Assembly (NCBI GenBank): GCA_022868165.1
Contig: JALHYA010000004.1
Coordinates: 83,432-147,431, forward strand
Origin: Patescibacteria group bacterium
GTDB taxonomy: Bacteria > Patescibacteriota > Microgenomatia > UBA8517
Reading direction: 5' to 3'
Length of the DNA stretch: 64,000 nucleotides
Shown here: positions 5,421 to 23,019 of the stretch, piece by piece
Layout: each line of letters begins with the position of its first letter
Numbering within the stretch: position 1 is the first letter of the stretch
Made by a program: the position numbers and the translations under genes
Notes under the pieces: model-generated
The model's database searches: none
The model's input: only the letters and a program-made list of their open reading frames with translations
What the model was told of the DNA's origin: nothing

Positions 5421-5440
5421 TTTTTATTTTTATTTACTCC

Positions 5441-5470
5441 AGCTTCTAATCTCTAACTTCCAACTTCCAA
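5441..5470. repeat. Copy of the dispersed intergenic motif (AGCTTCTAATCTCTAACTTCCAACTTCCAA) between two surface-protein genes
   Basis: Reverse complement GGAAGTTGGAAGTTAGAGATTAGAAGCT. Matches the copies at 17955-17980 and 20636-20680. Confidence 0.5.
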
Positions 5471-5471
5471 A

Positions 5472-6842
5472 CTAGAACCAACCTAAAACCGTATTGTGTA
5501 ATTGGGCTCCGACAGTAAAGCTTGAGACTCCTTCGGGAATCGTATATTCATCATAATATTCTTCCGTTCCTGGTTTTTTCTGGGTAACCTCGGACCTATC
5601 GACTCCGTTTATTTTAAATTTGGCTTTATCATTTGTGCCCGTTGTGGCGGTCCCGCCGATTGCGAACCTCACAATATCTCCGACTTTAAGAGTGGAAAGT
5701 TTATCGGCGGTTAATAGCGTCCAGCTGGAATCGAATGCTTGGACGGCCAGACACTGAGCGGATTCTTCTCCTCCCGGGGGAGGTGTTGGAGTTTCTGTTA
5801 TTGTTCCCCCTCCGGTTCCTGTACACTGATAACACCAGTTTGGAATTGTAGCGGTTCCCGCATTAACTATAGTTGCATTTTCGCATATTCGGTTGGCGGT
5901 CGGCGTTTCTCTGACTCCGCAAACTCCCTCGCAAGCCTCTTCCGCAGCATCACGATTGCTTCCTCCGGAGGTATATCCAGTCGGACAAAGTTGGGTAGTT
6001 GTGGTAGAAACACATTCATTTGCCCAACAGCGCTCTCCTGTTGCGCATGCTCTTCCGCAGGAACCGCAGTTGCGGCTGTCGTAGCGGGGGTCGACACAAC
6101 TTCCGTTGCATACGATTTGTCCTGTCTGACAGGTAGTAGTTGCCGTTGCAGTTGGACTGGGTGAGGCAACTCTAGGCAGACAATTGTTGGCAGACCAATA
6201 ACAATCAGACCTGGCTTGACAGACAGAAATACCCAGTCCCAGACAGTTGGGTTGCGCTGTAGACGTAGGTATTGGAGTGGCTGTGGCTGTTGGACAGCCC
6301 GCCCTGCACTCCGTGGCGCTGTTACCTCTACAAAGACAGTTATTATAGCAACTGCCGCTGTTACAATCGATACAACATCCAATATTTTGGCCAGCGGGGG
6401 AAACACATCCTCCACTACTGGTACCCTTAAACGTTTTATTGGCTAGAGTGCATGCTCCGCCGGTGGTACATGTTCCAGTTTGACCACTAACAGTACATGA
6501 CTGACCGGGCCCCGCGGCTTTTTCCCTTATATCCTGTTGTTGTTGCACAAGGACTACTCCTGCTCCCAGACCTCCCACCAAAACGAGGATTCCCAAAATT
6601 GTTGCGACCATACGGCGACTTACTCTGCCTTTCGGTTTTGATGGAGTGATTACGGGAGGAATTCCGAGTCCTTGTAAATCACCAACCGGGCCTGCTCCGC
6701 CGGTCGGTTCGGGAGGCGACGGGGGAACATCGGAATCCATCGACGGCAAAGTTGGAGGAGCAGGTTCGGTTGGAGGAGTTTCACCAAAGATAGGTGTGAC
6801 CGGGACTGGTTTTATTGCGTTCGGGTCAGAATTATCGGGCAT
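5472..6842 (-). CDS. Cysteine-rich extracellular protein with Pro-rich cytoplasmic N-tail and a single TM anchor
   Basis: About 110 aa Pro-rich N-terminus, TM segment RRMVATILGILVLVGGLGAGVVLVQQQQ, then an ectodomain of about 330 aa with about 45 Cys in CxxC / NCGSCG / CxxGxxC arrays (e.g. CQTGQIVCNGSCVDPRYDSRNCGSCGRAC). Overlaps the upstream gene by 11 nt. Confidence 0.5.
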   Translation of the reverse strand: MPDNSDPNAIKPVPVTPIFGETPPTEPAPPTLPSMDSDVPPSPPEPTGGAGPVGDLQGLGIPPVITPSKPKGRVSRRMVATILGILVLVGGLGAGVVLVQQQQDIREKAAGPGQSCTVSGQTGTCTTGGACTLANKTFKGTSSGGCVSPAGQNIGCCIDCNSGSCYNNCLCRGNSATECRAGCPTATATPIPTSTAQPNCLGLGISVCQARSDCYWSANNCLPRVASPSPTATATTTCQTGQIVCNGSCVDPRYDSRNCGSCGRACATGERCWANECVSTTTTQLCPTGYTSGGSNRDAAEEACEGVCGVRETPTANRICENATIVNAGTATIPNWCYQCTGTGGGTITETPTPPPGGEESAQCLAVQAFDSSWTLLTADKLSTLKVGDIVRFAIGGTATTGTNDKAKFKINGVDRSEVTQKKPGTEEYYDEYTIPEGVSSFTVGAQLHNTVLGWF

Positions 6843-8190
6843 ATTTGAAAATAAAGAAACTTAGGCCCAAAAAGCCTATACCCATCATAGAAAGAAGCAG
6901 AGTTGGAGTCAAGCTGCCAGTCTGAGGAATTCCTGAGGCAGTTGAGATTGGAGTAGTAGTTGGCGCAAGCGTCGGCGTTGCCGAGACGGTAGAAGTAGGA
7001 GTTGGAGTAATTATTGGCGTCGGAGTCGGCGTCGGAGTCGGGGAAGGTGTGGTCGATGCAGACGGAGTGGAAACGAAAGCCGGTCCTTCCGCTGCTTGAA
7101 CGACAAATGTTCTTGTTAAAGTCCTTAAGATTCCGGAAGCATCGGTCCAGCTGATGGTTATAGTGTGGCTTCCGGCAGGAAGATTGGATGGTGGATCCCA
7201 AACCCAGTTGCCGCTGGCATCGACAATTGCTGTTCCGGTCACTGCTTCCGATTGAACCGTGATTGTAAGTTTCGTTCTGGGCGGTCCTTCTCCAAAAAAT
7301 TCCGGCTTGGTGCTGGTAACAATTTCCCCGCTGGAAACGCTTTTTAGCGTGACCGTTTGCGCCGATGGGGTTGCGATTTGCGAAGGAACATTAAATCCGG
7401 AAGACGGGGTGGATTCGTTGGGAAGTCCGACGTTTGCCGAAGGAACTTCGCTTGAATTGGAAGGAGGAAGGCTTGTAAAATCATGGGTTTTCCCAATAGT
7501 CATGGCAGGTGCCGGCTTTGCGGATTGAGGATAAATTTGAGCGCTTGAGGTGTTGCCCAGTCCGGCATCAACCGATATTTCGACCAAGGTTTTTGTATCG
7601 TCTATCACAATGTAATTTGTAAGGTCCGCCGTCCTTGCGGCAGATATTGGAACTACCCAATTTCCGTTTTGGGAAGTAAATGTCGAAAGAAGACTTCCTC
7701 CACTTACCGTTACATAAACTAAAGCATTTTGCACAGGGTTTCCGTCGTCACCCAAAACAGTTCCTGAAATTGTGTCCGCTTGTGTTGAAGCGGCAAGGGA
7801 AGGACCGGTTGATGTTTGCCAAGGGGAGCCGCTATCGTCATAAACCGTTCCGCTTGAATTTATTTTGAAAAAAATTGTTTGTCCTGCCGAAAGACCGTTT
7901 ATGGTTACGCGATGTGTAATGTTGGTTCCCACCAGTTCGTCGTTCTCGTTTCTGGATATTGTGCCTTGGGAGGTTCCCCAAAAGACAAAGCTTTCCGTTT
8001 TAGTGTCTGTTACCCAAGAAACCGCAAGAGATGTATCGCTAATATTGGATATCTTTACGTTTTTGGGTGCGGTATCTCCGGTTGCTCCCAATTTGAAAAT
8101 TTGCCTATATTGCACCAAAAATACTCCTGCGGCGAGGCCGATTATTAAAATTATTACCCCGATTATTGTCGGAATTCTACTTGGTTTCAT
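6832..8190 (-). CDS. Sortase-anchored cell-surface protein (FN3-like, CarboxypepD_reg-like and Ig-like beta domains; C-terminal IPQTG sorting signal)
   Basis: N-terminal signal/anchor MKPSRIPTIIGVIILIIGLAAGVFLVQ. Beta-rich domains (DTSLAVSWVTDTKTESFVFWG; ISGTVLGDDGNPVQNALVYVTVSGG; TKLTITVQSEAVTGTAIVDASGNWVW). PT-rich stalk. C-terminus ...STASGIPQTGSLTPTLLLSMMGIGFLGLSFFIFKYAR, i.e. an LPXTG-type motif, hydrophobic span and basic tail. ATGA overlap with the upstream gene. Confidence 0.6.
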   Translation of the reverse strand: MKPSRIPTIIGVIILIIGLAAGVFLVQYRQIFKLGATGDTAPKNVKISNISDTSLAVSWVTDTKTESFVFWGTSQGTISRNENDELVGTNITHRVTINGLSAGQTIFFKINSSGTVYDDSGSPWQTSTGPSLAASTQADTISGTVLGDDGNPVQNALVYVTVSGGSLLSTFTSQNGNWVVPISAARTADLTNYIVIDDTKTLVEISVDAGLGNTSSAQIYPQSAKPAPAMTIGKTHDFTSLPPSNSSEVPSANVGLPNESTPSSGFNVPSQIATPSAQTVTLKSVSSGEIVTSTKPEFFGEGPPRTKLTITVQSEAVTGTAIVDASGNWVWDPPSNLPAGSHTITISWTDASGILRTLTRTFVVQAAEGPAFVSTPSASTTPSPTPTPTPTPIITPTPTSTVSATPTLAPTTTPISTASGIPQTGSLTPTLLLSMMGIGFLGLSFFIFKYAR

Positions 8191-8537
8191 GGTGTTGGTG
8201 TAGCGCTTGCCGTTGCTGTTGGTGTTGCACTGGGACTTGCGGAAGGAGTCGGGGTAATGGTTGGAGATGGGGTTGGAGTTGTAGTTGCGGACGGCGTTGC
8301 TCCCGTAATCTTGGTCCCCCCAATTTCACCTTCGGATAAAAATGTTCTTGATTGAATCTTGGAAAGGGAATCGGTGTCGAGAGTAGGAGTTAAGGCCTGC
8401 AGAATATCTTCAGGAACGCTAGGAGAAGGTTTGGTTGTAAATGCTCTATAAGCGGTGAAAAATACCCAAAAGACAAGCGTTATTGCGGTCAAAACTGCGA
8501 TTGTAACTAAACTTGGGACTCTAGATTTTTTCTTCAT
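8187..8537 (-). CDS. Small membrane-anchored Pro/Thr-rich protein
   Basis: MKKKSRVPSLVTIAVLTAITLVFWVFF anchor followed by a T/P/S/A-rich low-complexity tail. 3-nt gap from the PilO-like gene; ATGA overlap with the next gene. Confidence 0.45.
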   Translation of the reverse strand: MKKKSRVPSLVTIAVLTAITLVFWVFFTAYRAFTTKPSPSVPEDILQALTPTLDTDSLSKIQSRTFLSEGEIGGTKITGATPSATTTPTPSPTITPTPSASPSATPTATASATPTP

Positions 8538-8540
8538 GAT

Positions 8541-9194
8541 TTAATTAGGGTAATAAGGAACTCTCCCCGAAATTACCAGCACCAAAGTTTTTCCGCCTTG
8601 GGTTTTGGAAGAGCTTATATTAAACACATCAATCTTTATAGGCCTTCTTAGGTTTTCGATGTTTGTCATAAACGCAGTCAGAGAAGAATAGTCGCCCTCA
8701 ATACTTACCGAGAAGGAAACTTCTTTTGCTCCCTCCGGAAGGGGAGCAAAATCGCTTTGTTTTACGGCCTCTTGCGACTTGCCCACAAGTGTTACGTCGC
8801 CGATTGAAACCCCAAGAAGTTTTGCGGAGGTTTTTTTGGAGATTCCTTCTATTTGTCGGGCAAACGTATCCGGGCTCGGGTCCGTTGGTACCGCATCGGG
8901 GACTAATAAAATAGTTGTCGGGTTGGCGTTAAAAAGACCCTCGGCCGTCTGAATATCGTTAATTTTTTGATTCATCTGGCTTATGGTTTGTTCGCGGCTT
9001 TTAAGCTGATTAATCAAATCGATAATTGTGAGAAGCGTCGGTTTTATGGCAAAAACTACGAAAATCGAAATAGTTGCTGCGGAAAGCAATATCTCCAAAA
9101 ACATCTTTACATCCTGTTTTTGTTTATAGACATTAACGATGTTTAGGAAATAATCCCTGTAGCGAAGATATGCCCCACGCCAACCGAGTGCCAT
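8541..9194 (-). CDS. pilO: Type IV pilus assembly protein PilO-like
   Basis: N-terminal TM, coiled-coil region, C-terminal segment SFSVSIEGDYSSLTAFMTNIENLRRPIKIDVFNIS resembling the conserved PilO core (SLSGSYHDLATFVSGVSSLPRIV...). Sits directly downstream of the PilN-like gene (9194/9195). Confidence 0.6.
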   Translation of the reverse strand: MALGWRGAYLRYRDYFLNIVNVYKQKQDVKMFLEILLSAATISIFVVFAIKPTLLTIIDLINQLKSREQTISQMNQKINDIQTAEGLFNANPTTILLVPDAVPTDPSPDTFARQIEGISKKTSAKLLGVSIGDVTLVGKSQEAVKQSDFAPLPEGAKEVSFSVSIEGDYSSLTAFMTNIENLRRPIKIDVFNISSSKTQGGKTLVLVISGRVPYYPN

Positions 9195-9752
9195 TTAAAG
9201 TTGTACTCCTTTCGGCCCCAAGATTATTTTGAGATTAAATTCAATCAAAGAACTTTCGCTTTGTGTTTCGGCCTGAGTAAGGGTTACGCTTTTGAAACTT
9301 TTTTCCGAAGAGAGATTGGTAATAAATTGCCCTACTTCTACCTCGGTTGGAGCGACTCCTTTAATTTGGATTGTGTCGTTGGATAGGGTAACGGCCGTAA
9401 GAATTACACTACTGGGTTGGTATTGGGTTATCGTGTTAAGGATATCGGTTGCGGCAGGCTGTGAGGAAAGTGAAGAAAATATTTTGAGCTGTTTTTGGAT
9501 TAAGCGGAACTGTTTTTCAAAATCGCTGGTTGCGGCAAGAACCGCCTGTTTTGTTTTAATCTCGTCATCCAAATCGCTTCTTCTTGAGTCAAGCCAAAAG
9601 CGGGACAAGAAAGCAATCATGACAATCATTTCGGTTGCGATAACGAGAATTCTAAATGTGGAAAGAAGCCACTTAAAAATTCGTCCGAAAGTTGATGCTT
9701 CGAACTCCTCCTGTGGTAATAAATTTATCTGGCGCTGTTTTTGGGCAGCCAT
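9195..9752 (-). CDS. pilN: Type IV pilus assembly protein PilN-like
   Basis: Begins MAAQKQRQINLLPQEEFE... with the hallmark PilN INLLP motif, followed by a single TM (FRILVIATEMIVMIAFL) and a periplasmic alpha/beta domain. Confidence 0.65.
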   Translation of the reverse strand: MAAQKQRQINLLPQEEFEASTFGRIFKWLLSTFRILVIATEMIVMIAFLSRFWLDSRRSDLDDEIKTKQAVLAATSDFEKQFRLIQKQLKIFSSLSSQPAATDILNTITQYQPSSVILTAVTLSNDTIQIKGVAPTEVEVGQFITNLSSEKSFKSVTLTQAETQSESSLIEFNLKIILGPKGVQL

Positions 9753-9757
9753 ACAAG

Positions 9758-9783
9758 CTAAGCGCTATTTAGCCAAGCGCTAA
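9758..9783. repeat. Two copies of AAGCGCTA (AGCGCT palindromic core) immediately upstream of the pilN-like start
   Basis: ctAAGCGCTAtttagccAAGCGCTAAcc at 9758-9783. A third near-copy AAAGCGCTAAT sits at the stop of gene 4980..5420 (about 4981-4993). Candidate operator. Confidence 0.3.
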
Positions 9784-9824
9784 CCTCAATATAGCACAAG
9801 TAAAAGAGTGAAAGAAGCTCGCAA

Positions 9825-10118
9825 TTATTTTTTCTTGGGAGTTTTTTTAGGAGCCTTTTTGACTTTCGGCATTAGTTTTGTCAGAGAACTTTTAATTCTT
9901 GCGGCTTTATTTTTGTGGATGGCCTTTTTCTTTGCGGCCTTATCCGCCAACGAAACGGCCGCGATAATATCTTTTGAAGACTTGCTCTTTTTCGCACGGC
10001 GCACAGCGACTTCCAATTTTGTAACCGTAATTTTATTAATGGAAGCCTTTTTCTTGGAACCTCTGAGCGCCCTTTTGGCCGTTTTAGTTACAGGCATGGC
10101 GAGAGTATAATCGAACAA
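9825..10118 (-). CDS. rpsT: 30S ribosomal protein S20 (bS20) with Lys-rich C-terminal extension
   Basis: ...AAVSLADKAAKKKAIHKNKAARIKSSLTKL matches the bS20 signature (IHKNKAARHK...L). The start may be the internal Met (MPVTKTAKR..., about 10097). Confidence 0.75.
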   Translation of the reverse strand: MFDYTLAMPVTKTAKRALRGSKKKASINKITVTKLEVAVRRAKKSKSSKDIIAAVSLADKAAKKKAIHKNKAARIKSSLTKLMPKVKKAPKKTPKKK

Positions 10119-10133
10119 GATTGAAATTTCAAC

Positions 10134-11864
10134 ATGGTTAATCGACTTTTCTCCAAAGGCAAAAACATATTATTTTCCCAACAATCTTCTGTTCTCTCGG
10201 CGGCATCTTTGATAATGCTGATGGTTGTTGTTTCGAGTATTCTCGGACTTGTAAGACAAAGGGTTCTTGCATACTTTTTTGCGCCGAGCGACCTTGCTCT
10301 CTTTTTTGCCGCCTTTAGACTTCCGGATACTATCTTTGAAGTTTTGGTTTACGGAACGTTTTCTTCGGCTTTTATACCGGTTTTTACCAGGTCCTTAAAA
10401 AAAGGCAACAAAAAAGCTTGGGAGGTTGCCGGAACGGTAACAAATATCGGGCTTATTCTTTATCTGATTTTTGTTGCCATCGTCTTTTTCTGGACAGATA
10501 AAATTTATAGTGTTCTTGCTCCGGGATTTACTCCTTTCGAAAGGCAAAAAATCGTTGGAATGGCAAGAATCCTTTTTGCTTCAGAAGGCTTCTTTATTGT
10601 GAGCTACGTCTTAACCGGCGTTTTGGAGTCTCTAAGAAGATTCTTGGTTCCGGCGTTGGCTCCGCTTTTTTACAATTTAGGAATAATTTTAGGCACCGTC
10701 ATATTCTCGCAGTCAATGGGTTTAACCGCACCTGCTCTAGGAGTATTTATCGGGGCTTCTTTACATTTCCTTATTCAGTTTCCTCTTGCAACGAAACTGG
10801 GTTTTAGATTTTCTCCGAGGATAAAAGTGACGGAAGACGTTAAAGCAATCGGAAAACTGGCCGCGCCAAGAGTTATCGAACTTTCGGTAACTCAGGTGGT
10901 GGAGGGGGTGCAGCTTTTCTTGGCCTCATTGATTTCTAAAGCAGCCTATACCTATTTTATTTTCGGCAATACCCTACAGGTTTTTCCTGTAGCCCTTTTT
11001 GGAACTTCGATTGCCAAAGCTGCACTGCCGACGCTTTCGAGACAGGTTGATACACCATCCAAGTTTAGAAGAACACTACTTCGCGCTCTTTATCAGATGA
11101 TTTTTGCGATTTTGCCGATAGCTACTGTACTTGCGGTTTTAAGAATTCCAATAGTAAGACTTGTATATGGGACAAACATTTTTACTTGGGAGGCAACTGT
11201 TCAGACCGGCATGGTCCTTTCCGCTTTTGCTTTTGGTATTGTTTTCCAGGCAGCGGCCGGCCTTTTGGCGAGAGGATTTTATGCACTTCACGATACAAAA
11301 ACCCCTGTTATAATTTCAGTCGGCTCTCTGATTCTAAACATTATTTTAGATTTTGTTTTTATTAAAGGTTTCGGTCTTCCGGCATGGGGACTTGCCTTGG
11401 GTTTTTCTTTGGGGAATGCCGTCCAGGCAAGCGCTCTTTATTGGTTTTTAACAAAAAGGATTGACGGCTATTCGCAACTGAAGACTTTCATCCCTATTGC
11501 CAAAGCAATTGTAGCCTCCGTCGCATCCGGCTTTGTGATGTATATTGTTTTGAGGATTTTTGACAGGAGTGCTTGGGTAAAACGACTTTCCTTCTTGGGT
11601 AAGATAGATATTGCAAAAAACATACCTTTTGAGAAGTTTGTGTTGGACACGCAGTACACGATAAATCTGTTGATACTCACGGTCTTTGTATGCGCAATAG
11701 GAGCCTTGGTTTACATTTTGATTTCTCTCATTCTTAGGAGTGAGGAACTTTGGGATTTTGTAAGGCTAATAAGAAGACTTATAACCAAGCGGTTGGGGAT
11801 TGGAATTCCCACAAAAGAACCCGAACCGGTTGCTCCTAGCCCCACAGACTCCAGGACCCCTTGA
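10134..11864 (+). CDS. murJ: Lipid II flippase MurJ (MviN)
   Basis: 576 aa, about 14 TM. N-terminus ...LIMLMVVVSSILGLVRQRVLAYFFAPSDLALFFAAFRLPDTIFEVLVYGTFSSAFIPVFT is the conserved MurJ start. Confidence 0.85.
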   Translation: MVNRLFSKGKNILFSQQSSVLSAASLIMLMVVVSSILGLVRQRVLAYFFAPSDLALFFAAFRLPDTIFEVLVYGTFSSAFIPVFTRSLKKGNKKAWEVAGTVTNIGLILYLIFVAIVFFWTDKIYSVLAPGFTPFERQKIVGMARILFASEGFFIVSYVLTGVLESLRRFLVPALAPLFYNLGIILGTVIFSQSMGLTAPALGVFIGASLHFLIQFPLATKLGFRFSPRIKVTEDVKAIGKLAAPRVIELSVTQVVEGVQLFLASLISKAAYTYFIFGNTLQVFPVALFGTSIAKAALPTLSRQVDTPSKFRRTLLRALYQMIFAILPIATVLAVLRIPIVRLVYGTNIFTWEATVQTGMVLSAFAFGIVFQAAAGLLARGFYALHDTKTPVIISVGSLILNIILDFVFIKGFGLPAWGLALGFSLGNAVQASALYWFLTKRIDGYSQLKTFIPIAKAIVASVASGFVMYIVLRIFDRSAWVKRLSFLGKIDIAKNIPFEKFVLDTQYTINLLILTVFVCAIGALVYILISLILRSEELWDFVRLIRRLITKRLGIGIPTKEPEPVAPSPTDSRTP

Positions 11865-11889
11865 CAAGAGTTAGCACTCGTGCTAATTT
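11861..11889 (+). promoter_or_regulatory. Sigma-70-type promoter (TTGACA-N17-TAATTT) overlapped by a shortened CIRCE-like palindrome TTAGCAC-TC-GTGCTAA
   Basis: -35 TTGACA 11861-11866, -10 TAATTT 11884-11889. The palindrome at 11871-11886 matches both CIRCE half-sites (TTAGCACTC / GAGTGCTAA) but with a 2-nt instead of 9-nt spacer. It sits directly upstream of hrcA-grpE-dnaK-dnaJ. Confidence 0.5.
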
Positions 11890-11896
11890 ACTGCTA

Positions 11897-11920
11897 AGCG
11901 CGAAGGCGCTGTTATTCATT
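11897..11920 (+). promoter_or_regulatory. Leader hairpin AGCGC-GAAG-GCGCT followed by a U-rich tract, ending 5 nt before the hrcA start
   Basis: Seen in sequence: stem 11897-11901 / 11906-11910, then GTTATTCATT. No Shine-Dalgarno sequence before ATG 11925. Confidence 0.35.
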
Positions 11921-11924
11921 AAAC

Positions 11925-12653
11925 ATGACTGACGGGCTAACCGCTAGACAAACACAAATTCTTAAGGCTTTAATCGATGAGTATATCGAAACCGCCGAGC
12001 CTGTCGGGTCCGAGAATTTGGACAAGAAATTTAATCTTGGAGTTTCCCCGGCAACAATACGAAACGAGATGGTAGATTTAACAAAAATGGGATATCTAAG
12101 ACAACCCCATACCTCGGCAGGAAGAATTCCCTCGCCCCGCGCAATAAAGTTTTATGTCGATACTCTTATGGAAGAAAAACAAATGAGTCTTGCCGATGAA
12201 GTAAAAGCAAAAGAGGAAGTTTGGGATTCCAGGGACGATATTGACGAACTTATTGCGGAGGCGACAAAAGCGCTTGCCGAAAGAACAAGTGAGCTTGCGG
12301 TCGCAGCGACCGATGAAGGTAAGGTTTGGCACGCCGGCTATTCGAACGTTTTTTTAAATCCTGAATTTGCAGATATCGAAATGTGCTCCAATTTATTTTC
12401 GTTTTTGGAAGAAGCCCAAGGAATTCATGATCTTTTCTTTGCCCACAAGTTTACCTCTCCAATCGAGGTTCTTTTTGGGGAAGAACTGGGTTGGCGTGAA
12501 CTTGCGCCTATTGGGATAGTTGCCACGCATTTTAATGCGAAAGGACGAAATGGGGCCTTGGGGATAATCGGTCCGACAAGATTAAGTTACCCGACAATTA
12601 TTCCCGTTTTGCGATATTTTGGTAATTTAATAGAAGAGGTTGCCGGAAAATGA
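11925..12653 (+). CDS. hrcA: Heat-inducible transcription repressor HrcA (short form)
   Basis: MTDGLTARQTQILKALIDEYIETAEPVGSENL...VSPATIRNEMVDLTKMGYLRQPHTSAGRIP is the HrcA winged-helix N-terminus. Lies upstream of grpE-dnaK. Confidence 0.8.
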   Translation: MTDGLTARQTQILKALIDEYIETAEPVGSENLDKKFNLGVSPATIRNEMVDLTKMGYLRQPHTSAGRIPSPRAIKFYVDTLMEEKQMSLADEVKAKEEVWDSRDDIDELIAEATKALAERTSELAVAATDEGKVWHAGYSNVFLNPEFADIEMCSNLFSFLEEAQGIHDLFFAHKFTSPIEVLFGEELGWRELAPIGIVATHFNAKGRNGALGIIGPTRLSYPTIIPVLRYFGNLIEEVAGK

Positions 12654-13072
12654 GTAAAATAAAAGAGTTAGATTTACTCAAGGAACAACTTGCAAGGGCA
12701 TTGGCGGATTATGATAATTTAAGAAAGAGGGCTGAAACCGAAAAACTTTCTTGGGCAAAGTTTGCAAGTCAGGGGATTTTGATAAAATTATTACCGGTTT
12801 TGGATATTTTGGAGTCGGCCAATTCGCACCTTGGGGATAAGGGACTTGAGATTGCACTTGCGGAATTTAAGAAAATCTTGGGAGAAGAGGGTCTTATTGA
12901 AGTCAATCCAAAAAGTGGACAGGTCTTTGACCATTCCGACCAAGAGGCAATAGAGTCGCTAGATGGGGGCAAGAAAGGAACGGTTGCGGAGGTTGTGCTT
13001 CCGGGATGGAAGTTTGTGGACGGACCGGTTGTGAGAGTTGCTAAAGTTAAAGTGTTTGGAAAGGGAAAATAA
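12650..13072 (+). CDS. grpE: Nucleotide exchange factor GrpE (short)
   Basis: ...[19 protein letters not shown]...[11 protein letters not shown]...[26 protein letters not shown]. 4-nt overlap with hrcA. Confidence 0.85.
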
Positions 13073-13077
13073 TTAAT

Positions 13078-15039
13078 ATGTCAAAAATCGTCGGAATTGA
13101 TTTAGGAACAACAAACAGCGTTGTGGCCGTAATGGAAGGGGGACATCCAAAAGTTATCCCCGCAGCCGATACCGGCAGAAATATTACGCCTTCCGTTGTC
13201 GAGCCCGTCAAAAACCTGGTCGGCGATGTGGCCAAAAGACAGGTAATCCTAAATCCCAAAAACACAATCTATTCGGTTAAGCGTCTTATGGGTAGGCGCG
13301 CCGACGATAAAGAGGTTGCAAGAACCAAAGAAATGGTTCCTTACGAAATTAAAGCCGGCAAAGACGGAATGGCGGTTGTCGAAGTTGAAGGCAAAACCTA
13401 CACCCCGCAGGAAATTTCGGCAAGAATCTTAATGAAGCTCAAAAAAGACGCGGAAAGCTATCTCGGCGAGAGTGTTGATAGTGCCGTAATTACGGTTCCC
13501 GCTTATTTTGATGATTCCCAGCGTCAGGCAACAAAGCAGGCTGGAGAAATCGCGGGGCTTAAAGTCGAAAGAATCATAAACGAACCAACAGCATCGGCCT
13601 TGGCCTACGGACTCGAAAAGGCTGCTCCGCAGAAAGAAAAACTTGAAAAAATCGCCGTTTACGACCTTGGGGGAGGAACTTTCGATATTTCTATCCTGGA
13701 GTTGGGGGATGGGGTTTTCGAAGTTAAAGCTACAAACGGAGATACACACCTAGGAGGAGACGATTTTGACGAAAAAATAGTTGACTGGATAGCGTCGGAG
13801 TTCAAAAAAGAATATGCGGTGGACCTTAAGGCCGACAAACAGGCGCTCCAGAGGGTCCGCGACGCAGCCGAGAAAGCAAAGATTGAACTTTCTGCGGCCA
13901 ACGAGATTGAAATAAACCAGCCCTACATTACCCAAAAAGACAGTCAGCCTCTTCATTTAACAATGAAGTTGACTAGGGCAAAATTGGAAAGCATTGTTTC
14001 CGATTTAATAGAAAAAACAATGAAGCCGGTTGAGTCGTGTTTTAAGGATGCAAAACTTGACCCGCACGATATTGATGAGGTAATTCTTGTAGGTGGAATG
14101 ACAAGAATGCCGAAAGTTGTAGAGACTGTTAAAGAATATTTTGGTAAAACTCCGAATCAATCGGTAAATCCGGACGAAGTAGTTGCCGTCGGAGCCGCTA
14201 TACAGGCCGGAGTTTTGGGTGGAGAAGTAAAAGACATTCTTCTGTTGGATGTGACTCCCCTGACTTTGGCAATAGAAACAATGGGGCAAATTGCAACCCC
14301 AATGATTCCTAGAAATACGACTATCCCGACTTCAAAGACCGAAATATTTTCAACCGCGTCGGATAATCAGACTCAGGTGGAGATAAATATAACCCAAGGG
14401 GAGCGTCCAATGAGCGTGGATAATAAGAGTCTTGGAAGATTTATCCTTGACGGTATTCCTCCGTCTCCCCGCGGGGTTCCGCAGATTGAAGTGACATTCG
14501 ATATTGATGCCTCGGGGATTTTGAAAGTTACGGCCAAGGATAATGCAACCGGAAAAACTCAAAACATCACAATTTCAGGTGCAATCGGACTTTCGGATGA
14601 CGAAGTCAAAAGAATGCAGGATGAGGCGGAAAAGCACAAGGAAGAAGACAAAAAGAAAGCAGAACAGGTTGAGGGCAAGAATCGTGCCGATGCGATGATT
14701 GCAGCTTCCGAGAAGGCTCTTAAGGACGCCGGAGATAAAGCTCCAAAAGAAGTAAAGGAGAAAGTGGAAGAGAAGATTAAAGCCTTAAAGGATATTCTGG
14801 AGACCGGCAGCAAGGAAGATTTGGAAGCAAAAACCAAAGATTTGTCGGACACTCTAAGTCAGGTTGGACAGGCAATGTATCAAGGCAAGCAAGGCGAAGA
14901 GAAGAAAGCCGAAGGTGCCGAGCAAAGTCGAGGAAACAAAGGCCCTGAGGACGTTCGACAAGGCTCAGTCGATAACCCCGCCGAAGGGGAAGACAAGAAA
15001 AAAGAAGAGAAGGTGGAGGAAGGCGAAGTTGTAAACTAA
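13078..15039 (+). CDS. dnaK: Chaperone DnaK (Hsp70)
   Basis: [15 protein letters not shown]...[12 protein letters not shown]...[13 protein letters not shown] plus C-terminal lid and EEVN-like tail. Confidence 0.95.
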
Positions 15040-15048
15040 GAATGTTAA

Positions 15049-15927
15049 ATGGCTGCAAAATCCGATTACTACGACATCCTCGGGGTTACTAAAAACGCTT
15101 CAGCCGAAGAATTAAAAAAGGCATACAGAAAGCAGGCTCTTGAGTGGCATCCCGATAGACACAAAGACGAGAAAGAAGTTGCAGAAAAACGCTTCAAAGA
15201 AATAAACGAGGCCTATCAGGTTTTGTCGGACTCGCAAAAACGTTCGGCCTATGACCAGTTTGGCCATCAAGCATTTACACCGGGAGGCGGATTTGCGGGC
15301 GCTAATCCGTTTGCTCAGAGTGGAAGGGCAGGCCCTTTTACCTATACTTACACAACTTATGGCGGTGGCCAAGACTCCCCCTTTGCCGGATTTGATTTTG
15401 GCGACCCGTTTGAAATTTTTGAACAGTTTTTTGGGGGAGGTAACCCATTTAGACAGCAGCAAAGAAGTGTTCCGCGCTATTCGATAAAAATTGATTTTAT
15501 TGAGGCTATGAAAGGGACAACAAAAGAAGTGGTTATCGAAAGGGAAAAACGGACGATAAAAATACCTGCAGGTGTGGATGAAGGTTCAAGGATTAATTTT
15601 GGAGATTTCCAGCTCTCGATTAATATAAAACCAAGCAATACATTTGACAGAGACGGAGACGATATTTATGCAACACTCAAGGTTCCCTACTCAATGCTGG
15701 TTTTGGGCGGAGAAACCCAAGCTCCGACCATCGATGGAGATATAAAAATAAGAATTCGTCCAGGAACACAGCCGGGAACGATGCTTAGAATTAGGGAAAA
15801 AGGAGTCCCCAGGCTTCACGGTCGTGGTCGTGGAGATGAGTATATTCGCATTAATATTTTGGTTCCCGATAAGCCAACGAGGGAACAAAAGCATCTTATA
15901 GAGGAGATGGGGAAAAGGGGTTTATAA
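15049..15927 (+). CDS. dnaJ: DnaJ-family co-chaperone lacking the Cys-rich zinc-finger domain
   Basis: J-domain DYYDILGV...HPDR, G/F-rich region, C-terminal substrate-binding domain ([15 protein letters not shown]...). No CxxCxGxG repeats and no Cys at all. Confidence 0.8.
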
Positions 15928-15936
15928 TATTTCGAG

Positions 15937-16674
15937 ATGACTGAAACAGGCGACATAGGTGAAAGAAAGGTTCCTTGTACCATTTCTCCCGAGTGGAATA
16001 AGACTATTCTTGCGCAGCAGAGGATTAAAGAGAGGGGTTTCTATGAGGAAGCCGATCGGGAATCCCCAAAGGGTTACTATTTAGGTAGACCGATAATAGG
16101 AAGAGACACTGCAATTAATGGAGGGGTGTATCTTGGCGGCGGCGAGAGAGAGGCAATTGTTGTTGACGATTCCTTGCCCAAAAGTCCGTTAAATAATGTG
16201 TACAGCGAATTACTGGCAATGAGGGCGAGGGCTGTTCAAAGAGGAGAACATTTCAAAGAAACCCTGCTGAGCGATGTTTTTGATCTCGTGCGACATAGAC
16301 TACCTTATAACGAACGGAGAGTGCGGGAAATTGGAGCCGCAATAGGCATAAAACCTGACCAGAAAGTGTCTTTGGGGGTATACATAACTGAAAAAACTGG
16401 GGTTTGCAGGCACCAGGCCCTTCTGGTTGCTTATCTTTTAGAAAGGCTTCGTAACGAGGGCCGGGTTAAAGGTAAAGTTTCGGTCGATAGGAATTATATT
16501 CCAGGAATAGGCGGGCACGCTTGGGTTAGATATATAAATTCTGCTGGAGAGGTAATAATAATAGATCCTGCGCGTGAACTAATTGATGATCTGCAACACA
16601 TAAAACCAGAACTAAGGGTGTTTTATGAAAGACCGCAAGAGCAGGGTTTTATACGCAAGCTCCTAAAGAAATAG
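15937..16674 (+). CDS. Cytoplasmic transglutaminase-like (TGc) Cys-His-Asp superfamily protein
   Basis: Core ...EKTGVCRHQALLVAYLLERLRNEG...GGHAWVRYINSAGEVIIIDPA matches the TGc signature (G-C-x-x-h-A; GHAW; hh-DP). No signal peptide. Starts 9 nt after the dnaJ stop. Confidence 0.5.
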   Translation: MTETGDIGERKVPCTISPEWNKTILAQQRIKERGFYEEADRESPKGYYLGRPIIGRDTAINGGVYLGGGEREAIVVDDSLPKSPLNNVYSELLAMRARAVQRGEHFKETLLSDVFDLVRHRLPYNERRVREIGAAIGIKPDQKVSLGVYITEKTGVCRHQALLVAYLLERLRNEGRVKGKVSVDRNYIPGIGGHAWVRYINSAGEVIIIDPARELIDDLQHIKPELRVFYERPQEQGFIRKLLKK

Positions 16675-16681
16675 TTTTAGA

Positions 16682-16710
16682 TTGACTTGTTTCTGCTTCT
16701 GGGGTAAACT
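16682..16710 (+). promoter_or_regulatory. Candidate sigma-70 promoter for nusA-infB (TTGACT-N17-TAAACT)
   Basis: -35 at 16682-16687, -10 at 16705-16710. Followed by leader hairpin GGTGGG-ATTTTTG-CCCGCC + ATTTTTTG (16734-16760) ending 10 nt before ATG 16771. Confidence 0.4.
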
Positions 16711-16770
16711 TGAGCAGGTTTTGTGAGTTTGATGGTGGGATTTTTGCCCGCCATTTTTTGTAAAAGACAT

Positions 16771-17913
16771 ATGCAAACACCGAGAACAGAATTTGCTCAA
16801 GCACTAACAGCCATCGCAACAGAGCGAGGGTTGGATGTCTCCGTGATTTTGGATACCATCAAGCAGGCAATTATTGCGGCTTACAGGAGAGATGCCCGTG
16901 AGCGCGGTGAAGATACGGAAACATCTGATTTTGACGCAGAAATTGACCCCGTAAACGGCGAAACCAAGATTTTCTCCTGGCCTTTGGAAAAGCCTGAAGA
17001 AAGAAAAGACGTTACTCCTCCGGGATTTGGCCGAATTGCAGCACAAACCGCAAAGCAGGTAATTCATCAGAAGATTCGTGAGGCTGAAAAAGGTGCGATT
17101 ATGGAGGAATTTGGAGAAAGAGTCGGAACCTTAATTTCCGGTATGGTTCTTCGCTTCGATGGTCCCAATGCACGCGTGGATATTGGCCGAACGGAGGCTA
17201 TTTTGCCGGCAGAGGAAAGGATACCCAACGAGCGATTGAATCTTAACCAGCGTATGACTTTTCTATTGAAAGATATAAAAGAAGGCTTAAAGGGTAAAGA
17301 AATTGTTCTTTCCAGGGGAGACCCAACTTTTGTCGAAAAGCTCTTTGCCAGGGAAGTTCCGGAAGTTGCCTCGAAGAGCGTAATTGTCAAGGCAATTGCC
17401 AGAGAACCCGGAATAAGAACCAAGATTGCTGTTGCCTCCGCGCAATCCGGCGTTGACCCCGTAGGAAGTTGTGTGGGCCAAAAAGGAGTAAGAGTTCAAG
17501 CCGTAACCAATGAGCTTGGGGGAGAGAGAGTTGATATTATTCCTTGGAGCGAGGATTCGGCTGAGCTTATCAAAGCTTCTCTTTCTCCGGCCGAAAACAT
17601 GGTGGTCGAGTTGGACGAAAAGAACAAAGTAGCCAAGGTTAAAGCTCCCGAAGATCAGCTTTCTTTGGCAATAGGCAAGGAGGGACAAAATGCAAGGCTT
17701 TGTGCGAAGCTAACCGGCTACAGGATTGAAGTCGAAGGACTCCCTGTTGAGTTTGCGAAGGAAGAGAAACCTGTTGAGGAAGAGGAAAAACCCAAAAAAG
17801 AGAAAAAGGTCAAAAAGGCTAAAAAATCAAAGCAGGCTAAGGCTAAAGAGTCTCAAGAAGTGGAAGAAGAGAAAACTGAAGATGGAAGTAAGAAGCTCGA
17901 TGCTGGAAAATGA
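16771..17913 (+). CDS. nusA: Transcription termination/antitermination factor NusA with Lys/Glu-rich C-terminal tail
   Basis: N-domain, S1 and two KH domains (...GVDPVGSCVGQKGVRVQAVTNELGGERVDII...). The ORF-track start 16723 was trimmed to the Met preceding FAQALTAIATERGL because the promoter and leader hairpin lie inside the longer ORF. Confidence 0.85.
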   Translation: MQTPRTEFAQALTAIATERGLDVSVILDTIKQAIIAAYRRDARERGEDTETSDFDAEIDPVNGETKIFSWPLEKPEERKDVTPPGFGRIAAQTAKQVIHQKIREAEKGAIMEEFGERVGTLISGMVLRFDGPNARVDIGRTEAILPAEERIPNERLNLNQRMTFLLKDIKEGLKGKEIVLSRGDPTFVEKLFAREVPEVASKSVIVKAIAREPGIRTKIAVASAQSGVDPVGSCVGQKGVRVQAVTNELGGERVDIIPWSEDSAELIKASLSPAENMVVELDEKNKVAKVKAPEDQLSLAIGKEGQNARLCAKLTGYRIEVEGLPVEFAKEEKPVEEEEKPKKEKKVKKAKKSKQAKAKESQEVEEEKTEDGSKKLDAGK

Positions 17914-17954
17914 AATTAGAAGTGAGAATGTGTAATTTCAAACATCGAACTTCA

Positions 17955-17980
17955 TAGTCTAATCTCTAGCTTCCAACCTC
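17955..17980. repeat. Copy of a dispersed ~20-nt intergenic motif (TCTAATCTCTAGCTTCCAAC) in the nusA-infB spacer
   Basis: 19/20 identical to 5447-5466 (TCTAATCTCTAACTTCCAAC). Its reverse complement (TTGGAAGYTAGAGATTAGA) is also found in the rpsO-pnp spacer. Confidence 0.5.
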
Positions 17981-17989
17981 TACCTTCGA

Positions 17990-19420
17990 TTGGTAAATAT
18001 GAAGACTATTATATCTAAAATGCAAACAACACAGACAAGGCCGCCTATTGTTACAGTACTAGGACACGTAGACCACGGTAAAACAACACTGCTTGATGCT
18101 ATTCGAAAGAGCAATGTAGCTTCGAAGGAAGCCGGCGGAATTACACAAAGTATAGGAGCTTCCACTGTTACCACAAAAGAGGGAAAGACAATAACATTTA
18201 TAGATACTCCCGGGCATGCGGCTTTTTCTAAAATGCGCTCAAGAGGTGCAAAAGTGGCTGATTTGGCGCTTCTGGTTGTTGCAGCAGATGATGGGGTAAA
18301 GCCCCAAACAATCGAGGCACTTCAATTGATTAAAGCGGCTAATATACCATTTATAGTAGTAGCTTCCAAGGTGGATTTACCCTCGGCTTCAGTTGAAACA
18401 CTCTATGGGCAGCTTGAGAAGGAACAAGTGTTGTTTGAAAATCGGGGAGGAGCTACTCCTTTGGTTCAGGTATCGGCAAAGAACGGAACAGGAATTGAAG
18501 AAATTCTTGAGATGATTAGCCTTGTGGCCGACCTCGAAGAAATTAAGGCGGATCCTAAAGCGATTCTCGAGGCTGTTGTAATCGAAACCACCAAAAACAC
18601 AAGGGGTCTTTTGACATCGGCGGTTGTTAGAAACGGGACTTTAAAAGTCGGACAAGAAGTGTATTGCGAGGGACTAAGGGCAAAAGTGCGAGGACTTTTT
18701 GATGACAAGGGCCAGAGTGTAAAAGAAATTATCTGCGGGTTTCCCGCTCAAATACTTGGATTTGAAAAATTACCTTCAGTCGGAGCCGTAATTAGCGGTT
18801 CGGAAGCTAGTATGGCACTTCAGGTTGAGGGCAAGAAAGAACTTCAGATTAAGGTAGAAGAAGGCCAGCTTCCGGTTATAGTTAAAGCCAAAAACGCCGG
18901 AAGTTTGGAAGCTATCATTGCGGGATTACCAAAAGATGTTGTGGTTCTTGATTCGGGGGTTGGAGACGTATTTGAATCCGATGTGCTTTTGGCAAGATCC
19001 TCCGGGGCAAAATATATTTTAGCTTTCGAGTCCAAGGCACCTACATCGGTCATGAAGCTGGCCGAAGCCGAAGGGGTAAAAATAGAAGCTTTTCAAATAA
19101 TCTACGAGCTTTTCCAAAAGGTTGAAGAAATTCTTAAGGGCGGGCAAATCGAGATATTGGGTAAGGCCGAAATTGTTGCTTCTTTTCCTTTCAACAACAA
19201 AAAAGTAGCAGGATGTAGGGTTACTCTAGGCAGAATTAATAAAACGGATACTTTAATTGTTCAGCGGGGAGAGAAAGAGTTGGGCAGAGTAAAAATTGTA
19301 TCCCTTAAGAAACAAAAACAAGACATTGCGGAGGCAAAGATAGGCGAGGAATTTGGAGTGATTTTTGCACCGCAACTTGATTTTGCTGAAGGCGATGTGA
19401 TAGTATCGGTGCGAAAGTAA
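17990..19420 (+). CDS. infB: Translation initiation factor IF-2 (short form lacking N-terminal domains)
   Basis: G-domain right at the N-terminus ([19 protein letters not shown]...DTPGHAAF...SKVDL), domain II beta-barrel, and the C-terminal fMet-tRNA-binding domain. 476 aa. Confidence 0.9.
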   Translation: MVNMKTIISKMQTTQTRPPIVTVLGHVDHGKTTLLDAIRKSNVASKEAGGITQSIGASTVTTKEGKTITFIDTPGHAAFSKMRSRGAKVADLALLVVAADDGVKPQTIEALQLIKAANIPFIVVASKVDLPSASVETLYGQLEKEQVLFENRGGATPLVQVSAKNGTGIEEILEMISLVADLEEIKADPKAILEAVVIETTKNTRGLLTSAVVRNGTLKVGQEVYCEGLRAKVRGLFDDKGQSVKEIICGFPAQILGFEKLPSVGAVISGSEASMALQVEGKKELQIKVEEGQLPVIVKAKNAGSLEAIIAGLPKDVVVLDSGVGDVFESDVLLARSSGAKYILAFESKAPTSVMKLAEAEGVKIEAFQIIYELFQKVEEILKGGQIEILGKAEIVASFPFNNKKVAGCRVTLGRINKTDTLIVQRGEKELGRVKIVSLKKQKQDIAEAKIGEEFGVIFAPQLDFAEGDVIVSVRK

Positions 19421-19424
19421 AACA

Positions 19425-20270
19425 GTGGAAAATTCATTTAAATCTTTAATTGATTCTGCCTCATCAATATTAATTCTTCTGCCTTCCAAACCTTACTTCG
19501 ACCAGGTAGCGGCAGGGCTTTCTCTTTATCTGTCCCTAATGGGGCAAAAGAATGTCAACATTTCCTGTCCTTCTCCGATGTTGGTTGAGTTTAATAGGCT
19601 GGTTGGAGTAAATAAAATTGTTACGGAGACAGGGAACAAGAATTTGACTTTAAAATTTTCCGATTACCCGGCCGATAATATAGAAAAAGTCAGTTACGAT
19701 ATTGAAAACGGTGAGTTTAAGCTTATGGTTGTACCAAAGCCGGGTTTTACTTCACCAAAAAAGGAGCAGATTGATCTTAACTATTCGGGAGTTTCGGCAG
19801 ACACGGTAATTCTTGTGGGCGGAGCCAACGAGTCACACTTTCCCAATCTAAGCACTAAAGATTTTGAGGCAGCAAAATTAATCCACATAGGCGTCAGAGG
19901 GCTTTCTCTTGGAAACAAACAAATTATGTCATTTGCCAAACCGGCCTCCTCGGCCTCGGAGCTGGTTGCCACTTTAATTAAACAAAGCGGTTATAGCCTC
20001 GATGCGGATATCGCCACAAACCTAGTGATGGGGATAGAAGAAGGAAGTAACCGTTTTACAAACTCCGATGTTACTGCGGAAACCTTCGAAATTTTTGCAC
20101 AGTTATTGAAAGCTGGAGGCCAAAGACTTCCAACACAAAAAGTCGAGAGGGCTCCCTTCCCGCAAGGAGCAATTCCCGGAGAGGAAATAAAACTTGAGAA
20201 AGTTGAGAAGAAGGAAGCACCGAAAGACTGGCTGGAGCCAAAAATCTTCAAAGGTACCTCGGTAAGTTAA
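19425..20270 (+). CDS. Degenerate DHH-family (NrnA-like) protein lacking the catalytic motifs and the DHHA1 domain
   Basis: Aligns with the NrnA DHH domain (SILILLPSKPYFDQVAAGLSLYLSL; ADTVILVGGANE; LIHIGVRG in place of the IDHH motif; GIEEGSNRF in place of GDTGRF). No DHHA1/GGGH domain; Lys/Glu-rich C-terminus. Occupies the slot where rbfA/DHH/truB usually lie between infB and rpsO. Confidence 0.45.
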   Translation: MENSFKSLIDSASSILILLPSKPYFDQVAAGLSLYLSLMGQKNVNISCPSPMLVEFNRLVGVNKIVTETGNKNLTLKFSDYPADNIEKVSYDIENGEFKLMVVPKPGFTSPKKEQIDLNYSGVSADTVILVGGANESHFPNLSTKDFEAAKLIHIGVRGLSLGNKQIMSFAKPASSASELVATLIKQSGYSLDADIATNLVMGIEEGSNRFTNSDVTAETFEIFAQLLKAGGQRLPTQKVERAPFPQGAIPGEEIKLEKVEKKEAPKDWLEPKIFKGTSVS

Positions 20271-20358
20271 TATTGTTTTGTCAATATTTGTGTGTTATTA
20301 TACCCAAGATGTAGACAAGGTTTTTCGATGAAACGAATTACTTTGTTTAACACGACTT

Positions 20359-20628
20359 ATGGCATTAGAATCAGAAGAGAAGATTGATATAATCAAAAAG
20401 TTTGCCCGCGAAAAAGGCGACACAGGTTCTCCTGAAGTACAAATCGCCCTTCTTTCAGCTCAAATCGACAAACTTGTTGCGCATTTGAAGGAACATAATA
20501 AAGATGTTCATTCAAGGCGCGGGCTTCTTAGTATGGTTGCCAAAAGAAGAAGGCTTTTGACCTATCTTCACAAACGTGATGAGGAACGCTACAAGAAATT
20601 GATTTCAGAATTGAAACTTGAAAAATAA
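20359..20628 (+). CDS. rpsO: 30S ribosomal protein S15
   Basis: ...[47 protein letters not shown]... Confidence 0.9.
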
Positions 20629-20635
20629 GGAGAGG

Positions 20636-20680
20636 GGAAGTTAGAATTTAGAAGCTAGAAAAGAAATTGGAAGTTAGAAA
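20636..20680. repeat. Two tandem copies of the dispersed intergenic motif (GGAAGTTAGA-ATTTAGAAGCTAGA ... TTGGAAGTTAGA) in the rpsO-pnp spacer
   Basis: GGGAAGTTAGAATTTAGAAGCTAGAA is 21/23 identical to the reverse complement of 5441-5463 (GGAAGTTAGAGATTAGAAGCTGG). Confidence 0.5.
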
Positions 20681-20713
20681 GATCTCAAATCAAACTTCAA
20701 AATCTAGCTTCTA
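20649..20713 (+). promoter_or_regulatory. Long-range hairpin in the rpsO-pnp intergenic leader (11-bp perfect stem TAGAAGCTAGA / TCTAGCTTCTA, 43-nt loop)
   Basis: Seen in sequence. This is the same position as the RNase III-processed pnp leader hairpin known from E. coli. The right arm is an inverted partial copy of the dispersed motif. Confidence 0.45.
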
Positions 20714-20742
20714 GCATCAAACATCTCACTTCAAAGAATCTA

Positions 20743-22989: not shown

Positions 22990-23019
22990 CCAGGCCGTGC
23001 TAATCTGATATAGATATTT

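Follow-up and report, generated by a model that had tools for sequence, protein, structure and literature searches.

Degenerate heptanucleotide arrays and a two-copy hairpin insert at stop–start junctions of a Patescibacteria genome

A short motif recurs in three spacers between co-directional genes in a 64,000-nucleotide stretch of Patescibacteria DNA (assembly GCA_022868165.1, contig JALHYA010000004.1, positions 83,432 to 147,431 of the forward strand; hereafter, the window). The inserts that carry the motif have arms made of heptanucleotide tandem arrays, a class resembling the STRR repeats (short tandemly repeated repetitive) and a known general kind of bacterial repeat; they are not a conserved regulatory or processing signal. 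Taken together, the data suggest that these inserts probably represent a lineage-specific, STRR-like heptanucleotide-array element, the hairpin form of which has been copied at least once and which is tolerated at stop–start junctions by folding out. On this reading, a small non-coding insert would have been gained recently, with the motif as its best-preserved segment, and would behave like a miniature inverted-repeat transposable element (MITE) in its spread or turnover.

Heptamer arrays at three stop–start junctions

The original prediction described a dispersed motif of ~20-25 nt. It is present at all three sites; it is not, however, a free-standing unit, but part of arrays with a period of seven nucleotides. 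The three sites are as follows.

Site 1, 5437..5471, minus strand: solo array of the five heptamers TTTGGAA, GTTGGAA, GTTAGAG, ATTAGAA and GCTGGAG, detected by regular expression, Tandem Repeats Finder (TRF; period 7) and lag-7 autocorrelation (0.68)
Site 2 (copy A), 17852..17990, plus strand: 5′ purine-rich heptad arm at ~17858-17927, loop at ~17928-17945 and 3′ pyrimidine-rich arm at ~17946-17988
Site 3 (copy B), 20629..20742, plus strand: 5′ purine-rich arm at 20629-20684 and 3′ pyrimidine-rich arm at ~20699-20732, filling the entire rpsO-pnp spacer

Within the window, three spacers carry arrays, and each site separates the stop codon of one gene from the start codon of the gene that follows. 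The only overlap with coding sequence is that of copy A with the final 16 nusA codons. All three are degenerate tandem heptamer arrays with the consensus R-T-T-R-G-A-R. TRF reports a period of 7 at 5455-5470 and at 20637-20679 (6.4 copies). For site 1 and for each arm of sites 2 and 3, the autocorrelation is 0.52-0.68 at lag 7 and 0.45-0.67 at lag 14, the background for 55-nt tiles being 0.25 ± 0.07, and 13 of the 15 top-scoring lag-7 tiles of the window sit at these sites. A regular-expression scan for arrays of 3-5 units found two, with 0.015 expected. The 21-mer GGAAGTTAGAGATTAGAAGCT, allowing up to three mismatches, matches at 5441-5461 (minus strand) and 20636-20656 (plus strand), where shuffles of the window predict 0.00 matches, and TTGGAAGYTAGAGATTAGA matches exactly at sites 1 and 2, on the minus strand both times. 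The motif at site 2 is the reverse complement of that at sites 1 and 3 because it was the 3′ pyrimidine arm of copy A that had been noticed originally. The site 1 array has no inverted partner, occupies most of a 51-nt spacer and is purine-rich when read in the sense of the adjoining minus-strand genes.

Two copies of one hairpin

Folding of the spacers, which had been proposed as a check, predicts that sites 2 and 3 each form one long imperfect hairpin, and the inverted copy described as creating an 11-bp stem at site 3 was confirmed: TAGAAGCTAGA pairs with TCTAGCTTCTA over 11-12 bp. The predicted hairpin of copy A spans 17877-17988 (-28.7 kcal/mol; z = -2.3), and that of copy B spans 20629-20732 (-29.6 kcal/mol; z = -3.4; none of 200 shuffles equally stable), ending 10 nt upstream of the pnp ATG. 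Each copy is ~110 nt long. The segments 17877-17990 and 20629-20742 are 76% identical over 106 columns, loop included, with an alignment z of 10.6 relative to shuffles that preserve local composition, and the nhmmer match for copy A covers 17878-17990. The 5′ arms of both copies are 74-77% purine with 2-3 C, and the 3′ arms are pyrimidine-rich with 3-4 G. Inverted arms of the kind expected for terminal inverted repeats are present, but they make up the whole element rather than short termini. The consensus hairpin has 22 pairs common to both copies, and the imperfect stems, with ~33-35 predicted pairs in each, would be long enough for RNase III (about two helical turns or more).

Both copies contain stop codons in all six frames, and a scan for intrinsic terminators (a G+C-rich stem followed by a T run) found none at the three sites. 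Both features are compatible with a location inside operons. No Rfam family matched anywhere in the window at the gathering threshold; at E ≤ 1 the sole match within 17700-20900 was a chance plant miRNA hairpin (21 bits, threshold 100), and a search for tRNA and tmRNA returned no such genes. The promoter scan gave a single promoter-like site, TTGAAA-18-TAGAAT at 20618-20647 (10/12), with no excess over shuffles. Copy B supplies the -10 hexamer through its first units, and the end of rpsO supplies the -35 hexamer; if active, transcription would start inside the 5′ arm.

Presence and absence in sibling strains

Judging by its polynucleotide phosphorylase homologues, the organism belongs to Candidatus Woesebacteria. 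Among Logan contigs, one from SRR19116065 overlaps the window. Sibling locus L048 (JGI Ga0315288) is collinear with window positions 10346-32784 (22 kb) at 91-95% identity, and L085, which is 92-98% identical to the window, covers site 1. The junctions compare as follows.

nusA-infB: the window has ~133 nt more and a NusA that is 16 residues longer; L048 has a 24-nt spacer
rpsO-pnp: the window has a 114-nt spacer; L048 and L002 have 5 nt
Site 1 junction: the window has a 51-nt spacer including the array; L085 has a 21-nt spacer, TAGGAGTTTTGAATAACAGAA
pnp/AAA: the window has 30 nt (22990-23019); L048 and L002 have a different heptad-periodic hairpin insert of ~100 nt
Window position 29105/29106: no insert in the window; L048 has an unrelated 108-nt multi-hairpin insert (18462-18568)

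At the rpsO-pnp junction the comparison extends to ~30 further relatives, in which the spacer is mostly 0-12 nt; the hairpin is not kept at the orthologous junction. Gain of the insert in the lineage of the window is therefore the parsimonious reading. Since the siblings carry a different heptad-periodic hairpin of ~100 nt at pnp/AAA, turnover appears to be ongoing, and the junctions in this clade evidently turn such inserts over quickly. The array at site 1 does not appear to be rapidly length-variable. Two further loci, L087 and L088 (96.5% identity), have the same five-unit array, identical to that of the window, and the siblings lack the arrays altogether rather than differing from the window by whole units. 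Exact look-ups of the S15 and polynucleotide phosphorylase (PNPase) sequences of the window returned only the same Logan contig.

The insert at pnp/AAA (L048 12249-12376; L002 3768-3896) has a lag-7 autocorrelation of 0.47 and CTAAWAG-like units, and its similarity to the window element is not significant (z between 0 and 2.6). The L048 insert at 18462-18568 is another kind of junction insert, composed of several short G+C-rich hairpins (CTCCCGAC...GTCGGGAG and TCCTCGT...ACGAGGA), with no 7-nt period. Around copy B, divergence from L048 (9955-10025) is far greater over the final ~36 nt of rpsO and the initial ~20 nt of pnp (20590-20628 and 20743-20765) than in the surrounding genes; the C-terminal peptide of S15 is nearly unchanged despite the diverged rpsO end. 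The insert flanks appear to be locally accelerated or recombined.

Origin of the inserts and points against it

How might such an element arise and persist? Arrays would arise and grow by slipped-strand duplication of 7 nt, and the hairpin unit would then be copied to new stop–start junctions, either by ectopic recombination or by MITE-like mobilisation in trans. An insert would be tolerated owing to its stops in six frames and to fold-back, which would leave ~10-35 nt between the stop upstream and the start downstream once the mRNA has folded. If fold-back underlies the tolerance, the main effect would be that of a passive stem-loop spacer in a polycistronic mRNA. Incidental consequences of the stem-loop may include altered translational coupling, a barrier to 3′ exonucleases or recruitment of RNase III; effects of the inserts at the RNA level are plausible.

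Several observations weigh against this explanation. The element is full-length at only two places in the 64 kb and present as a solo array at one, and no transposase was noticed there in the list of open reading frames (ORFs) or by Pfam. An nhmmer profile of copies A and B detected no further copy in ~500 kb of related Woesebacteria loci. Comparison of filled and empty junctions gave neither a clean target-site duplication nor defined termini, the alignment being ambiguous and the flanks locally diverged. Copies A and B differ by 24%, as compared with 5-9% between sibling genomes, so a very recent single burst would need fast neutral decay or different source copies. No compensatory changes separate A and B across the 22 consensus pairs, and among 13 hairpins for which the two strands were compared the sense strand folded better in eight and the antisense strand in five, that is, with no consistent bias. 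These comparisons therefore do not show selection for RNA structure, and the structural likeness of the copies reflects common descent rather than demonstrated selection. Moreover, tolerance through folding out and origin through slippage are both steps that we infer.

Alternative explanations

The alternative that survives best, although we consider it unlikely, is that each site represents an independent local slippage and expansion of a Shine-Dalgarno-like heptamer, low-complexity sequences having converged without any copying between sites. Unrelated phyla have the same class of unit, which shows that convergence or a shared generative bias does occur. The last unit of site 1 is the GGAG-containing GCTGGAG, beside a stretch that resembles the TAGGAG spacer of the sibling, and polymerase slippage has been proposed to account for the excess of heptamers in bacteria (PMC4692102). 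However, copies A and B have the same order of unit variants and the same loop (76% over ~106 nt; z = 10.6), which would be hard to obtain by independent expansion, and the alignments of filled and empty junctions show no clean whole-unit differences.

Less credible again is a model in which the hairpins are selected determinants of processing by RNase III or another RNase, uncoupling or regulating infB and pnp in the manner of the Escherichia coli pnp leader. The predicted imperfect stems of ~35 paired positions are in principle long enough for RNase III, the hairpins lie inside probable operons with no terminator features, and copy B occupies the precise position of the pnp leader that RNase III cleaves in E. 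coli (PMC5371410). In E. coli the pnp 5′ untranslated region is indeed an RNase III target, but in the metY-nusA-infB operon the RNase III site is located between metY and rimP and not between nusA and infB (PMC5371410). The analogy with E. coli drawn in the original prediction thus applies to the pnp leader and fails for the nusA-infB junction. Furthermore, the inserts are absent from strains of 92-95% identity and from ~30 relatives, there are no compensatory changes and no Rfam match, and site 1 has no hairpin partner. These findings argue against the processing determinant that had been suggested. RNase III may still cleave the ~35-bp imperfect stems incidentally.

Third, the motif might be the binding site of a trans-acting protein or RNA with a small regulon (for example, an RNA-binding protein with a 7-nt register, CsrA, Csp or S1). 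We regard this alternative as improbable, more so than the two above. Its attractions are that short repeated units resemble multivalent binding arrays, that similar proposals have been made for the TAACTGA and Nostoc heptamer repeats, and that all three sites immediately precede start codons. Against it, the best-conserved motif copy at site 2 is antisense, opposite to sites 1 and 3, the three downstream genes are functionally unrelated, and solo arrays in other phyla lie upstream of genes in both orientations. The sites are conserved neither in the sibling strains nor in the ~30 relatives, which tells against the regulator-binding site of the original prediction. Because the inserts are missing from siblings and distant relatives alike, a conserved site for RNase III or for a regulator is not supported.

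Finally, chance resemblance of A/G-rich intergenic sequence can be dismissed: the units are short and degenerate and the genome is 43% GC, but the shuffle controls rule it out, with zero matches expected for the 21-mer and 0.015 arrays expected where two were found, and the z of the full-length alignment (10.6) and a lag-7 signal essentially limited to the three sites in the window tell against it as well.

The same heptamer class in other phyla

A 19-mer scan of 185,579 species genomes returned 42 loci, where ~9 chance matches are expected by our arithmetic for equiprobable bases. The loci represent at least five other phyla and belong to Clostridia and other Bacillota, Bacteroidota, Chloroflexota (many of them Anaerolineae), Acidobacteriota and one gammaproteobacterium; none is from Woesebacteria, and the collection scanned does not seem to contain the source genome. 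At all 42 the 19-mer is embedded in an array with three or more units (range 21-140 nt; at least 28 nt in 31 of them). The majority occupy intergenic positions, in many cases with a start codon directly downstream and in either orientation, and two follow tRNA genes. The 19-mer was absent from the IMG/VR viral contigs, and the 114-nt element had no blastn match in plasmids or phages.

At several of these loci an array is followed by an inverted array, and very stable hairpins are predicted (z down to -8.7). Among adjacent inverted pairs with two or more units per array, 17 of 18 have the purine arm first, as do 10 of 10 when each array has three or more; copies A and B and the L048 insert conform to this order. 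This property is identical on both strands, so the order is not an effect of the orientation of transcription. In the candidate phyla radiation (CPR) loci, heptad-periodic segments occur at 21 places in 523 kb, as compared with two in shuffled sequence, and are built from other units (CGTAATA, CCGAAAT, AGTCAAA, AGTAATT and CTAAWAG).

These features raise the possibility, which we put forward tentatively and hold to be doubtful, that R-T-T-R-G-A-R arrays and purine-first hairpins form one cross-phylum class of interspersed elements, with a dedicated mechanism behind unit sequence and arm order. The class may comprise Patescibacteria, Chloroflexota, Bacteroidota, Clostridia, Acidobacteriota and a gammaproteobacterium. 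In this scenario, the mechanism may be a conserved factor reading nucleic acid with a 7-nt register, a mobilisation system with heptamer arrays as its ends, or birth from the Shine-Dalgarno heptamer with subsequent selection on co-transcriptional folding.

Some individual loci deserve mention. In a Clostridia metagenome-assembled genome (MAG; Lapin-002 bin17), a repeat of >100 nt that includes the 19-mer is present on five contigs (L017, L024, L030, L044 and L045). The flanking ORFs encode Fic or thioredoxin or have no Pfam match, and no transposase was found nearby. The pyrimidine strand of this repeat encodes ...NLISNFQPLTSDHRGITLIALVITIIIMLI, which looks like a prepilin-type N-terminus, as if the array lay within or at the start of a multi-copy pilin-like gene. 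Arrays of the same class directly follow apparent tRNA 3′ ends (GGTTCGAATCC...) in an Anaerolineales MAG (L038, 6389-6416), where the array lies between two apparent tRNA genes, and in a Bacillota MAG (L040, 4616-4650); hence, spacers of tRNA genes also harbour the heptamer class. Four tandem AGTCAAA units occupy the same relative position in two distant CPR loci (L066, 6231-6300; L080, 8037-8106), in a region that matches pnp, which could reflect a split gene or an internal spacer.

Flanking genes and neighbouring features

The genes that adjoin the three sites are listed below.

4980-5420, minus strand: 146-aa protein with a hydrophobic N-terminus, flanking site 1 (ORF list)
5472-6842, minus strand: 456-aa protein with a Stig1-like Cys-rich domain, flanking site 1 (ORF list and Pfam)
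16723..17913, plus strand: nusA (the L001 counterpart has Pfam NusA domains)
17999..19420, plus strand: infB (IF-2), which follows copy A (gene calls plus Pfam for L001)
20359..20628, plus strand: rpsO (S15), which precedes copy B (Pfam Ribosomal_S15 in the L001 counterpart)
20743..22989, plus strand: pnp (PNPase), downstream of copy B (Pfam RNase_PH, KH and S1; homologues named Candidatus Woesebacteria PNPase)

Copy A begins inside the 3′ end of nusA, and its 5′ arm covers the last codons and the stop. The last 16 codons (...SQEVEEEKTEDGSKKLDAGK) are accordingly supplied by this arm, while NusA of L048 ends in ...EPKEA. Translation of infB may start at ATG 17999 or ATG 18020, neither of which has a close upstream Shine-Dalgarno sequence.

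Upstream of site 1, the stretches 8541-9752 and 6832-8190 hold PilN-like and PilO-like genes beside large secreted proteins with Big_13, fn3 and CarboxypepD_reg domains; the neighbourhood is a type IV pilus and surface-protein region. Around a 576-aa gene (10134-11864), the spacers 9753-9807 and 11865-11924 have GCTAAGCGC-type words in common, together with the palindromes AGCGCT and TTAGCAC/GTGCTAA, and represent a separate small intergenic motif family. Between dnaJ and nusA, the gene at 15937-16674 (245 aa, no Pfam match) lies in an interval, 15855-16732, that could not be aligned by blastn with L048 5450-6233 and that looks like a variable gene slot.

Implications

For annotation, the long nusA-infB and rpsO-pnp spacers should be treated as strain-specific inserts and not as conserved regulatory leaders. 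One of the inserts, copy A, rewrote the NusA C-terminus. Beyond this genome, heptad-periodic hairpins of ~100 nt are still gained and lost at stop–start junctions in CPR genomes, very compact as these are, on the time scale of ~92-95% identity. A single heptamer class with constant arm order is found in six or more phyla, and this is worth following up; if the regularity in arm order has a mechanistic cause, it bears on the long-open question of the excess and role of heptanucleotide repeats in bacteria.

Comparison with known systems

Heptanucleotide repeats in intergenic DNA have been described before, although as a class they are poorly understood. The STRR sequences of heterocystous cyanobacteria are, like the window arrays, 7-nt units in tandem, scattered over many non-coding loci. 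Their units (CCCCAGT, TTGGTCA and CAACAGT) and host phylum are different, and the window arrays are short and degenerate, two of them forming a copied hairpin of ~110 nt. STRR arrays can also, as Vioque reportedly found in 1997, be helix extensions inside the structured RNase P RNA.

The TAACTGA repeats occur in Beggiatoaceae, Cyanobacteria and Bacteroidetes just upstream of start codons, and no mechanism of transfer or function is known for them (MacGregor 2015, PMC4679880). They resemble the window arrays in being heptamer arrays a few nt upstream of starts, including those of ribosomal-protein operons, with one unit common to distant phyla (PMC4679880). Unlike the window arrays, with their degenerate units, full copies that are inverted pairs and mixed orientation, TAACTGA arrays are near-perfect and forward-biased, with 169 direct sets and one indirect set (PMC4679880). 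The GGGAATC/GGGGAYT repeats of Xanthomonas and Nostoc are likewise intergenic, vary in length and sequence among close strains and include some inverted pairs capable of forming stem-loops (Rehm 2015, PMC4692102). These units are, however, G-rich, form G-quadruplexes and are largely kept between the same genes in related species (PMC4692102), whereas the window unit cannot form a G-quadruplex and the sites differ among sibling strains. Heptanucleotide elements have also been described in Geobacter (PMC2700814), and effects on expression have been reported for promoter-proximal heptamers in Nostoc (bioRxiv 10.1101/2022.06.06.494920). Strings such as TTAGAGGTTAGAGG, TTAGAAGTTAGAAG and CTTCCAACTTCCAA were not found in the literature searched.

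Like the E. coli leader located between rpsO and pnp (PMC5371410), copy B is predicted to fold into a long imperfect hairpin ahead of the pnp start, but it has no sequence or Rfam relationship to that leader. Because it is absent from siblings of ~92-95% identity and from most relatives, copy B is not an inherited element of pnp autoregulation.

The hairpins of MITE type (Correia/NEMIS, RPE, BOX, RUP and ERIC, as well as REPIN, PMC3116915) share with the window element a length of ~100-150 nt, a non-coding nature, polymorphism among strains and co-transcription in operons. A REP/MITE-like repeat (REP, repetitive extragenic palindromic) was one of the three roles suggested originally, and it comes closest of the three, the element being multi-copy, hairpin-forming and polymorphic in presence and absence. 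REP features and a clear target-site duplication are lacking: the arms are non-palindromic heptamer arrays, rather than imperfect palindromes of 20-40 bp in doublets, and have no GTAG/CGTC head. The window element further differs from the MITE-type hairpins in that neither a defined terminal inverted repeat combined with a target-site duplication nor an associated transposase was seen, and in its heptad-periodic arms and two observed full copies. Among the MITE-type elements, Correia elements are RNase III substrates and RPEs can extend open reading frames. Like an RPE, copy A extends the reading frame of the gene that it entered, NusA.

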